Shown one piece after another: positions 4,778-8,981 of a stretch of 64,000 nt of DNA (positions are counted from its first letter, which is position 1; each line of letters begins with the position of its first letter). Source of the stretch: Candidatus Poribacteria bacterium. Its GTDB lineage: Bacteria; Poribacteria; WGA-4E; WGA-3G. The position numbers and the translations under genes were made by a program. Below the pieces are notes generated by a model, which was given only the letters and a program-made list of their open reading frames with translations, was not told the origin of the DNA and ran no database searches. The DNA lies in assembly GCA_965197475.1 (NCBI GenBank), contig CBDANF010000003.1, positions 128,001 to 192,000 on the forward strand, written 5' to 3'.

Positions 4778-4840
4778 TCAACGAATTTTCAATAAGACTT
4801 TTACAAACCGATATAATTATACAGAAGGAGGTGAAAACAG

Positions 4841-5086
4841 ATGTCTCTCGATTGGAAACCGCGTCACAGGGATATGATTATCGGCGGCATTCCTTGGTTA
4901 GCCAGAATTTCCGACAAAGCTAACGCGAAACTGCAAGGCATCATCGGTGAATACATATACCCGTGACCACAGGACAAAATGTTCCTGGAGGAACACAAGA
5001 TATCTGCTGAGGATTTTGTTGAAATGGTGAAAAACAATCCCTCAGATGACGAGATGATTGCTGCTGTGAAAAAATTAAACAGTTAA
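4841..5086 (+). CDS. DUF5069-like small protein with in-frame TGA (4964-4966); putative selenoprotein, 81 aa
   Basis: SD AGGAGGT upstream. Translation: MSLDWKPRHRDMIIGGIPWLARISDKANAKLQGIIGEYIYP(TGA)PQDKMFLEEHKISAEDFVEMVKNNPSDDEMIAAVKKLNS. Family-like sequence continues on both sides of the TGA. Confidence 0.75.
4980..4995 (+). promoter_or_regulatory. Putative bacterial SECIS hairpin
   Basis: TGTTCC-TGGA-GGAACA forms a 6-bp stem with a 4-nt loop and G at loop position 2. There are 19 nt between the UGA and the loop. Confidence 0.6.
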
Positions 5087-5150: not shown

Positions 5151-5174
5151 GGCGCGCTTACAAAGCGCGCCTAC
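5151..5174 (-). repeat. GTAG-type REP (family A)
   Basis: Reverse complement GTAGGCGCGCTTTGTAAGCGCGCC is identical to 29689-29712 and similar to 57251-57273. Confidence 0.85.
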
Positions 5175-5189
5175 TTGTGAATGTCCGAG

Positions 5190-5211
5190 GCGCAATGAAT
5201 TGCGCGACTAC
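5190..5211 (-). repeat. GTAG-type REP (family B)
   Basis: Reverse complement GTAGTCGCGCAATTCATTGCGC: GTAG followed by a palindrome. Confidence 0.65.
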
Positions 5212-5250
5212 AAACGCTGCAAATCCCAAGAAAAATATTTACTTATTGCG

Positions 5251-6170
5251 ATTATATTTAGGTATACTAAAAGTGGAAAAGTTACTTTTAACGTAAATAA
5301 TGTTAGAATTCCATATTCAGAGTCTGTAATGGACTCTTCAGAAAGCCGCTACGATAAGTCATATCGTAGCAATAAAGTGTATTCAGGATATAAGCCAAAT
5401 AAATTAGGAAAACATCCTGAAGATTGGTGGACTATACAACCGCTTATGCCTTCAGATAAAAAAGAACGTACAGGTTATCCAACACAAAAGCCGATTGCCT
5501 TACTTGAACACATAGTCAATGCGTCCTCTAATCCTGATGACTTAGTGTTAGATCCGTTCTGTGGTTGTGGGACTACGTTAATGGCGGCTCAAAGGCTGAG
5601 TCGTCAATGGGTAGGCATAGACCTAACCTATCTTGCTATAGGTGCTGTGAAGCAGCAGATAGAGAAGTTGTTTCCAAGTATCCGTGATGCCATTATTATC
5701 ACTGGCACACCTGAGAACGGTTTTCAAGCGTTAGACCTTGCGCGTAGTGATCCGCAAGGATTTGAGGGGTGGAGTATCACGCATGTGCTACACTTTAGAT
5801 CTAATGTAAAGAAGGTATCCGATGGCAGTATAGACGGTATGTTACGTTTTTCGTTGGGACGTATTAAAGTAAAGGCAAGCAAGCGTATGGCAAAGCGGTA
5901 GCACAAGTGAAGGGCGGTTGGTATACACTGGGTCATGTCCGTGATTTTAGGACTGCGATGCAGAATGAAAATGCGGATATAGGTGTCTTTGTTGCGACAA
6001 CACCACCAACGCGTGAAATGGAGAGAGAAATTGCACGCGCGGGCACCTATAGTCATCCCAGTTACGAGTTTACAATTCCAAGTTTGCAACATTACCAGAT
6101 ACAGGATTATTTCAAAGGCATATTGCCAAAACTGCCTTATGCTGAAAGGAATATACTGTAAAGAAAATGC
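5251..6170 (+). pseudogene. Duplicated 3' part of the DNA methyltransferase/Mrr-like endonuclease gene (copy 1)
   Basis: Near-identical to 7904-8821. Contains GYPTQKP and DPFCGCGTT, lacks the N-terminus, and has a frameshift near 5865-5875. Confidence 0.9.
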
Positions 6171-6215
6171 GGGGATTTTTCGCCGCATATAACAAATTTC
6201 TAGGAGGATAACAAA

Positions 6216-7184
6216 ATGAAACGTATCTTTACGTTGTTTGGCGTAACGTTACTGTTCAATCTACTTCTACTTGTCATAAATGCTTGGGGAGAGCAGTATA
6301 TTGCCTTCCATTCTAATCGGACAGGGAATTTTGATATCTACATTATTGATAGAAACGGCGAGAATCTACGCAATCTGACAAATCATCCCGCCAGCGACGT
6401 TGCCCCAACTTGGGCACCGGATGGGCACTCTTTGGCTTTTCAGTCAACCCGTGATGGAAATCCGGAAATTTATATTATGGACATCAACAGTAATCAAGTA
6501 CGTCGATTGACAAACCATCCGAGATGGGATCTGACTCCTACTTGGTCACCTGATGGAAATTGGATCGCTTTCGTATCCGATAGAAATGGAACATCTCATG
6601 TCTATAAAATAGACATCAACGGCAAGAATCTACGGCAACTTACTATCGCTGGAAAGTATAATCTTCAGCCAGCGTGGCATCCAGACGGACAATCAATTTT
6701 TTTCGCGCGTCCCACTGTAGGTTTTGAAGGCCAGATTTTTAAAATGGACACAAATGGATTCGATACTAGAGGATTTATAAGTTTCCCTCAAGCGGAACCT
6801 GGATCTCCCGCTTGGGCACCTGATGGAAAACAGATTGCCTATACTAGTAATATTGGGGGACGTAGTATCTACATTGCGGATGCAAAGGGGAAAAACCCTC
6901 GACTCGTGTCACCTGTTGATAATTATTGGAGCAACGCGCCTACATGGTCCCCAGATGCTAAGTGGATTGCATATTACGCGACAATTGAATTTCCTGCGGA
7001 TAATCCGAATGCAACTGAAGATATTTATATTTGCTCTGTTAATGGGGGCAAACCGCAGCGAATCACTCAACATCTGGGAGATGATGGTTATCCCGCATGG
7101 GCCCCCGAAGGTTTTTTCTCTGTTAATCCAACAGCAAACACCCAGGCGATACTTTGGGGACAGTTGAAGCAAACTGATTTTTAA
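6216..7184 (+). CDS. Secreted TolB-like beta-propeller (PD40 repeats) with a lineage-typical C-terminal WG motif
   Basis: Signal peptide, repeated P-[TA]-W-[SA]-PDG motifs, and tail SVNPTANTQAILWGQLKQ. Confidence 0.88.
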   Translation: MKRIFTLFGVTLLFNLLLLVINAWGEQYIAFHSNRTGNFDIYIIDRNGENLRNLTNHPASDVAPTWAPDGHSLAFQSTRDGNPEIYIMDINSNQVRRLTNHPRWDLTPTWSPDGNWIAFVSDRNGTSHVYKIDINGKNLRQLTIAGKYNLQPAWHPDGQSIFFARPTVGFEGQIFKMDTNGFDTRGFISFPQAEPGSPAWAPDGKQIAYTSNIGGRSIYIADAKGKNPRLVSPVDNYWSNAPTWSPDAKWIAYYATIEFPADNPNATEDIYICSVNGGKPQRITQHLGDDGYPAWAPEGFFSVNPTANTQAILWGQLKQTDF

Positions 7185-7389
7185 TCTGATGCATCTTCAA
7201 TTTTCTCTGAAGTTTGAATATGCGATATCGGTTGAGTATGCAAGGTAGAGATATGTTCTAAATGATTCTGTTTAGACAGAACGTGATACCATGTACGTCT
7301 TTATTCTTTCCACAAACACCACCACGTTGTATAGAGAAGCACACAAAGGAGTTTATATTTGACAGAGTTGTAAAAAAGGAGATCATCAA

Positions 7390-8810
7390 ATGTTTAAGAA
7401 CAAGACTTTAATTCGTGGCGACAACTTGGAAGCGATGCGGGGTTTTCCGGAGCAATGTGTTGATTTGATTGCGACGGATCCGCCTTTTAACTCCAAGCGT
7501 GACTATTTTGTGCCGTATAAAGATGACGATGAGCATAAACCCGATGTGCTTGTGAAAGCGTTTTCTGATACTTGGAACTGGGGAGAATCCGCTGAGAACG
7601 CATATAACGAACTACTTATTGATGCGGGTGGCAAAGTTGGCGACACATTCAGTTGGTTCGCGTCAATTCCTTGATGATACGCCTATGATGGCATACCTCG
7701 TTATGATGGGCATTCGGATTGTGGAGATGCATCGTATTCTCAAGGATACCGGCAGTCTATACCTACACTGTGATCCAACCGCGAGCCATTATCTCAAAAT
7801 CATATTGGATGCTGTCTTTGGACGGGAAAACTATAGAAATGAGATTGTCTGGTGTTATAGAGGTGGTGGGGTTCCTAAAAACGATTTTGCAAAGAAACAT
7901 GATATTATATTTAGGTATACTAAAAGTGGAAAAGTTACTTTTAACGTAAATAATGTTAGAATTCCATATTCAGAGTCTGTAATGGACTCTTCAGAAAGCC
8001 GCTACGATAAGTCATATCGTAGCAATAAAGTGTATTCAGGATATAAGCCAAATAAATTAGGAAAACATCCTGAAGATTGGTGGACTATACAACCGCTTAT
8101 GCCTTCAGATAAAAAAGAACGTACAGGTTATCCAACACAAAAGCCGATTGCCTTACTTGAACACATAGTCAATGCGTCCTCTAATCCTGATGACTTAGTG
8201 TTAGATCCGTTCTGTGGTTGTGGGACTACGTTAATGGCGGCTCAAAGGCTGAGTCGTCAATGGGTAGGCATAGACCTAACCTATCTTGCTATAGGTGCTG
8301 TGAAGCAGCAGATAGAGAAGTTGTTTCCAAGTATCCGTGATGCCATTATTATCACTGGCACACCTGAGAACGGTTTTCAAGCGTTAGACCTTGCGCGTAG
8401 TGATCCGCAAGGATTTGAGGGGTGGAGTATCACGCATGTGCTACACTTTAGATCTAATGTAAAGAAGGTATCCGATGGCAGTATAGACGGCATGTTACGT
8501 TTTCCGTTGGGACGTATTAAAGTAAAGGCAAGCAAGCGTATGGCAAAGCGGTAGCACAAGTGAAGGGCGGTTGGTATACACTGGGTCATGTCCGTGATTT
8601 TAGGACTGCGATGCAGAATGAAAATGCGGATATAGGTGTCTTTGTTGCGACAACACCACCAACGCGTGAAATGGAGAGAGAAATTGCACGCGCGGGCACC
8701 TATAGTCATCCCAGTTACGAGTTTACAATTCCAAGTTTGCAACATTACCAGATACAGGATTATTTCAGGGCATATTGCCAAAACTGCCTTATGCTGAAAA
8801 GAATATACTG
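7390..8810 (+). pseudogene. Frameshifted N6-adenine DNA methyltransferase with C-terminal Mrr-like endonuclease domain
   Basis: Motifs GDNL, DLIATDPPFNS, LYLHCD, GYPTQKP, DPFCGCGT and AQVKGG. Frameshifts near 7650, 8520 and 8767. Confidence 0.88.
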
Positions 8811-8871
8811 TAAAGAAATGCAGGAAAAATTTCCGCATAAAACAAAATATTTAGAATCCCAAAACTACTTA

Positions 8872-8899
8872 TTGCGTATTTTTATACTTTCACTATAAT
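8872..8899 (+). promoter_or_regulatory. sigma70-like promoter for pheA-queG
   Basis: TTGCGT-16nt-TATAAT. Confidence 0.55.
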
Positions 8900-8981
8900 A
8901 TCCGGTGGGTTAAGTGCCTACCGGGTATACAATTACAAAAGTGCGTCTTTTACGCGCACAAGAATCCATAGACATCGCGCA

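Follow-up and report, generated by a model that had tools for sequence, protein, structure and literature searches.

Bacterial selenoprotein genes with an intragenic SECIS, of which E. coli fdhF is the prototype, combine an in-frame UGA with a small stem-loop, Cys-containing homologs and the genes selA, selB, selC and selD. The bacterial SECIS (bSECIS) model, as set out in the available part of a review (PMC13188914), specifies an upper stem of 4-16 bp topped by a loop of 3-9 nt, with G within the first two positions of the loop. The apical loop lies 16-37 nt from the UGA, and the minimum free energy is at most -7.5 kcal/mol. Table 1 of the same review (May 2026) gives 119 prokaryotic selenoprotein families and subfamilies with their domain identifiers, including the single-Sec hypothetical families GOS_B, DG and DF which, like the gene described here, have one Sec and Cys homologs and were defined by comparative genomics alone. 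Among solved structures, PDB 3omd ('unknown function protein from Leptospirillum rubarum') has the same fold as the protein considered below, with a Cys at the same place.

The window (the whole stretch of DNA analysed, 64,000 nt) comes from a Candidatus Poribacteria MAG and includes, near its left end, a gene that shares the in-frame UGA, the small stem-loop and the Cys homologs of fdhF-type systems. We read it, with a probability of roughly 0.9, as a single gene encoding an 81-residue selenoprotein, in which UGA is decoded as Sec by means of a hairpin SECIS. The UGA is preceded by 41 sense codons, the last residues being GEYIYP, and followed by 39 more (PQDKMFLEE...KKLNS). Coordinates are given in Table 1. 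The Shine-Dalgarno sequence, ATG, TGA and TAA had been pointed out in a first-pass annotation of the window, and all were borne out on re-reading the sequence. Its remark that the ORF track misses the gene also proved correct, as the two halves stand in the ORF table as separate entries of 41 aa and 35 aa. Of 54 orthologs, nearly all have a GGAGGTG-type sequence ahead of the start codon. The TATAAT hexamer that the first-pass annotation had marked upstream is present, but a promoter scan found no sigma-70-type -35/-10 pair matching it. A palindrome downstream of the gene is a possible terminator; it is not followed by a T run and is absent from the output of a terminator scan.

Table 1. Features of the selenoprotein gene and its immediate flanks (positions in the window).
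Feature	Position	Strand	Remarks
-10-like hexamer TATAAT	4812-4817	+	read from sequence
Shine-Dalgarno AGGAGGT	4826-4832	+	8 nt upstream of ATG 4841
Predicted selenoprotein gene, short-form DUF5069	4841-5086	+	81 codons plus TAA
Predicted Sec codon UGA, residue 42	4964-4966	+	in-frame TGA
Putative SECIS hairpin	4980-4995	+	arms TGTTCC 4980-4985 and GGAACA 4990-4995, loop UGGA (TGGA in DNA) 4986-4989; comparative evidence
Stop codon TAA	5084-5086	+	end of read-through frame
GC-rich palindrome GGCGCGCTT-ACA-AAGCGCGCC	5151-5171	+	read from sequence; putative terminator

The read-through product had been assigned to DUF5069 in the first-pass annotation, and a search against Pfam confirmed this: it matches DUF5069 (PF16798) with an E value of 1.9e-14 and 54.4 bits (cut-off 27), over profile positions 4-75 of 133. 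The protein is a short form of DUF5069. It differs from the Pfam family and 3omd in covering only the first ~75 of the 133 profile positions, and in having Sec rather than Cys. A search of NCBIfam with the same product returned 0 families at E up to 1, and the protein therefore matches none of the NCBIfam-modelled families in Table 1 of PMC13188914 at that threshold.

The UGA had been proposed to fall on a Cys conserved in the family. Of 165 related database proteins, 118 have C at this position, 15 have S and 12 have W, while 13 stop exactly at residue 41, four have another residue and three are unaligned. The Cys of the YNCPLD motif of 3omd also aligns to the UGA. The proposal holds for most of these proteins, but not for five further DUF5069 copies in the same genome, which have Ser at the Sec position and so are a poor fit to a purely redox role for DUF5069 as a whole. 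In the short form, the motif around the site is Y-P-U/C-P-x-D; in the window protein it reads YPUPQD, and there is no Cys anywhere in the sequence. The 12 proteins with W are gene calls on short contigs that read TGA as W, and no Trp of any other derivation was found at the site among the 165. Two public, NCBI-sourced gene calls (P0015 and P0018) end at ...GEYIYP, cut at the UGA. Elsewhere in the genome, a single open frame of 433 aa (G000:C3:2340415-2341662; L021-L023) carries three tandem DUF5069 domains with Ser in each, and two more DUF5069 copies, of ~145 aa each, lie at C3:1641573-1642458.

The in-frame TGA is not a private mutation of this genome, a possibility that the first-pass annotation had set against its own reading. 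In each of the first 61 relatives (61/61) the ortholog contains a single TGA, and protein identities are 61-99%. Across the phylum, orthologs (matches at E up to 1e-10) were found in 168 of 176 genomes, with TGA in 160 (149 with one TGA, and 11 further genomes with TGA) and a Cys codon, TGC or TGT, in eight. The eight genomes with no match comprise two that are 81% complete, three of one family and three of other classes. The eight Cys orthologs all belong to one Poribacteria family and have the motif YPCPADK. In all five of the Cys-form Poribacteria genomes examined selB is retained, indicating that the Cys form is not a by-product of loss of the Sec trait.

Downstream of the UGA, the median dN/dS was 0.19 for codons 43-79 (values from 19 of 21 pairs) and 0.16 for codons 52-79, from which the hairpin codons are left out (14 of 21 pairs). 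For codons 2-41 it was 0.10, from the 6 of 21 pairs that were usable, because synonymous sites are saturated. By this measure purifying selection (dN/dS about 0.17) acts on the codons that follow the UGA, which indicates that they are translated. Contigs from RNA libraries (records 11 and 17; two runs of one study) span the UGA with the TGA unchanged; these come from close relatives, may include DNA and cannot show read-through, and stretches that lack coverage are uninformative.

The prediction that the organism uses Sec is supported by the presence of all four genes of the Sec machinery. Matches to selA (611 bits), selB (350 bits) and the tRNA-Sec gene selC (75 bits, adjoining selB) are above the curated cut-offs, as is that to selD, which has an in-frame TGA of its own, i.e., it is Sec-containing. 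The hairpin of SelD, comparable to the one described below, has 6 to 7 pairs and a loop of CGGGU, 17 nt from the UGA. A SelW-like gene (CTSU; G000:C3:2600622-2600837) and an AhpD-like gene (CHYU; C3:1210855-1211376) both contain a single in-frame TGA, with a small hairpin downstream of it; they are additional members of the selenoproteome of this genome, from known families. TGA terminates 9 of the 42 long open frames in the window. In one Poribacteria genus (L057-L061, L064, L065 and L068) the ortholog carries a Lys/Ser/Arg-rich C-terminal tail (KPSKKRKSKSRKS) and is ended by a second TGA, so that the same codon would serve as Sec and as stop inside one gene.

The hairpin downstream of the UGA has a stem of 5 to 7 pairs and G at loop positions 2 and 3; 19 nt separate the last base of the UGA from the start of the loop. 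Its letters, 19-nt distance and the G at loop position 2 are as the first-pass annotation had them. The same annotation had considered it a fit to the bacterial SECIS model, and this is correct for the stem, loop, G and spacing rules as they appear in the available part of PMC13188914. For the energy given there, the outcome depends on the stretch folded: the 22-nt hairpin alone, at -6.4 kcal/mol, falls short of -7.5 kcal/mol, and the 47-nt region reaches -9.2 kcal/mol when a poorly conserved lower helix is counted. Compared to fdhF-type systems it is short and, alone, weak. Among shuffled versions of the 22-nt hairpin, 10 of 200 fold as well (z -1.99), and its 71-nt context is unremarkable (z -0.37). 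The lower SECIS helix, predicted from the window sequence, was rejected, being paired in just 63.8% of cells across orthologs. Fold energy was set aside as support for the hairpin, the region not being unusually stable, and the case for it accordingly rests on comparison between genomes.

Both the sequence and the position of the hairpin are strongly maintained. The core TTCCTGGAGGAA occurs in 96 of 98 distinct regions, with pairing kept in the two variants, and the spacing from UGA to loop is 19 nt in 95 of the regions and 22 nt in the other three, which carry a one-codon insertion. Codons 48-51 (TTC CTG GAG GAA) were counted in 105 distinct genes, those with the one-codon insertion being left out. 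TTC and GAG are found in all 105, CTG in 104 (TTG in one) and GAA in 104 (GAG in one), and both of the synonymous variants still pair, as U-G wobbles. The minor-synonym fractions of these codons (0 to 0.01, against about 0.3-0.6 elsewhere) are the four lowest of all degenerate columns, and at the other Leu codons of the gene five or six synonyms are in use. The conservation of the hairpin overlaps partly with that of the peptide FLEE.

In 104 distinct regions of 48 nt, the five inner pairs are formed in every cell. The closing pair is GC in 102, GU in one and AU in one, and the next pair out is UA in 74, AU in 16, GU in two and unpaired in 12. Overall, 98.1% of cells are paired for the hairpin and 92.9% for the whole structure, compared to 26-69% in slid controls. 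The covariation score was 0.098 versus 0.039 for shuffles, with none of 500 shuffles as high, in a control that makes no correction for relatedness; since most hairpin positions are invariant, this signal comes from the two outer pairs. The compensatory changes proposed as a check in the first-pass annotation are present at the closing pairs, and the synonymous sites are frozen. The hairpin also follows the codon. In a set of loci with either TGA or Cys, which takes in the 19 loci of the Latescibacterota type described below, the core is found in 35/35 TGA forms and in 0/18 Cys forms, and none of the 26 Cys forms read at the DNA level has the hairpin (8 from Poribacteria and 18 others). These comparisons suggest that the hairpin acts as the SECIS. 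A ribosome arriving at the UGA would then encounter SelB, recruited by the hairpin with its Sec-tRNA(Sec), and selenocysteine would be placed at residue 42 before translation continues to the TAA.

Other readings of the locus have to be weighed against this one. If the TGA were a true stop, the gene would be decayed or specify a 41-residue peptide, with the downstream frame untranslated. Public gene calls appear to say so, as P0015, P0018 and the 13 truncated representatives end at ...GEYIYP, and TGA ordinarily terminates genes here. However, a stop at this place is hardly credible given its retention in 160 genomes with protein identities of 61-99%, the low dN/dS of the frame that follows, and Cys homologs that read across the site. 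Met47, the sole candidate for a separate start, is found in 65% of the 105 distinct genes, and this poor conservation makes independent initiation there unlikely. Decoding of the UGA outside the Sec system, whether by a reassigned code (Trp or Gly) or by near-cognate read-through, would account for the twelve database calls with W at the site, but these are from short contigs and were probably called under another code. It is highly improbable in a genome with complete selA, selB, selC and selD, where TGA ends nine of 42 long frames in the window; in one genus this same gene terminates at a TGA, the homologs have Cys at the site and, among the 165, no Trp other than that derived from TGA, and the hairpin co-occurs strictly with TGA.

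Sec might instead be inserted as proposed while the hairpin serves pausing, stability or regulation, the true SECIS being different or larger. Its energy alone falls short of the bSECIS threshold, and with mostly invariant positions there are few pairs able to covary, both of which leave some room for such a role. It seems quite unlikely all the same, as every TGA form seen carries the hairpin and none of the 26 Cys forms read at the DNA level does, its spacing is fixed (19 nt, or 22 nt with the one-codon insertion), its loop obeys the G rule in the available part of the model, and the sole other predicted helix is poorly conserved.

The Sec form is also found outside Poribacteria. Nineteen loci have TGA at the same place and an identical GTTCCTGGAGGAAC at the same distance, and 18 of these are labelled Latescibacterota or Latescibacteria. 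Proteins of the Latescibacterota type are only about 50% identical to those of Poribacteria, and yet the hairpins are letter-identical. Homologs from Chloroflexota, Bacillota/Clostridia and Eremiobacterota have Cys at the site. A tree was reconstructed from 55 short-form proteins (74 columns, with the Sec/Cys column masked), which leaves numerous branching points open and is rooted arbitrarily. It shows a clade (98/93) consisting of Poribacteria, Latescibacterota and two Cys proteins, P0013 and P0014. Within it are a Poribacteria clade (96/85), which encloses the Cys family (98/90), and a Sec clade of Latescibacterota (100/94), which has P0013 and P0014 as its sister group. This topology would require at least two Sec/Cys changes. 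As the SECIS is common to both phyla, the Sec form probably had a single origin and was followed by Sec-to-Cys replacements; Cys would have taken over in one Poribacteria family that keeps selB, the Sec form with its identical SECIS being otherwise common to Poribacteria and Latescibacterota.

The gene order in Poribacteria is UPF0182, selenoprotein gene, pheA and queG (79, 76 and 71 of 80 loci), and the homologs of Latescibacterota, Chloroflexota and Clostridia have different neighbours. Gene context was rejected as a functional clue, since the neighbours give no hint and none is common between phyla. In relatives, pheA and queG lie directly 3' of the gene; here, ~3.7 kb intervenes (window 5200-8900), and looks like an insertion. 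This stretch carries ORFs for N6/N4 DNA-methylases at 5200-5901 (partial) and 7619-8554, and for a PD40-repeat protein at 6216-7184. The same set of small ORFs is repeated at 5724-6190 and 8377-8840, offset by 2653 bases, suggesting an internal duplication over the 3' parts of both methylase genes. A 33-nt element at 5183-5215, with the palindrome GCGCAAT..ATTGCGC, has the appearance of a dispersed REP-like repeat: there are 28 copies in the genome (13 forward and 15 reverse, with up to three mismatches; the reversed control gave 0), one of them only within the window, and in contigs from sponge RNA libraries it is found with many different flanks.

A structure was modelled for P0167, a naturally occurring Cys ortholog that shares 68% identity with the window protein, using 84 aligned homologs. 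The model (pLDDT 92.9, pTM 0.82) has four helices, and Cys42 is positioned directly before helix 2 (residues 43-51). K26 and D45 are invariant, and R22, D25 and C42 are nearly so. Foldseek matched the model to 3omd with E 3.4e-4 and TM 0.81, and VIA with Z 12.5 and an rmsd of 2.1 over 83 residues, the next match being at Z 3.9. In both searches 3omd was the sole resembling chain. A protein atlas search with the Cys homolog P0014 returned DUF5069 clusters only, with scores under 0.9. The location of the reactive residue at the N-terminal end of a helix is shared with thioredoxin-fold UxxC/CxxU selenoproteins, but the window protein has no second Cys three residues away and its domain is all-helical. 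No thioredoxin-fold chain was among the structural matches, of which only 3omd was above Z 4.

Because the window protein has no second Cys, its function may be that of a single-Sec redox centre working with an external thiol or partner protein, a tentative assignment to which we give somewhat less than even odds. Such a centre would cycle through a selenenic acid or a selenenyl-sulfide with the outside thiol or partner. Selenium/sulfur transfer and metal binding are alternatives.

DUF5069/PF16798 is not among the 119 families in Table 1 of PMC13188914, and none of the papers searched names either identifier. No DUF family is mentioned in the available part of the BSepDB main text, and DUF5069 is not among the new families in the available part of the deep-Sep paper; the supplementary tables of both may list it, as may a groundwater-MAG study mentioned in PMC13188914. 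On the sequence comparisons made here, this is a conserved selenoprotein gene that has escaped annotation; Sec would be inserted by the standard bacterial mechanism, and the family is so far uncatalogued.

DUF5069 would extend the prokaryotic selenoproteome beyond the May 2026 list, and a systematic annotation error is corrected, as public calls throughout the phylum cut the gene at 41 residues or read W. Within a widespread family for which a structure has been solved, one residue now stands out as the probable active site, which makes DUF5069 directly testable. The identical SECIS in two phyla, with proteins that are ~50% identical, offers an unusually clean natural case for the study of SelB recognition. 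A broader and distinctly doubtful proposal is that DUF5069 is a redox or chalcogen-transfer domain, of a fold that has yet to be connected with reactions of this kind, in which the invariant Cys/Sec is the active residue, and that the Sec form and its SECIS arose once and were then transferred between Poribacteria and Latescibacterota, or retained since before their split. Both phyla have sponge-associated members, and selA and selB are reported, in the available part of PMC5649159, to be enriched in sponge symbionts. If true, a single-origin Sec form would tie this gene to that enrichment.
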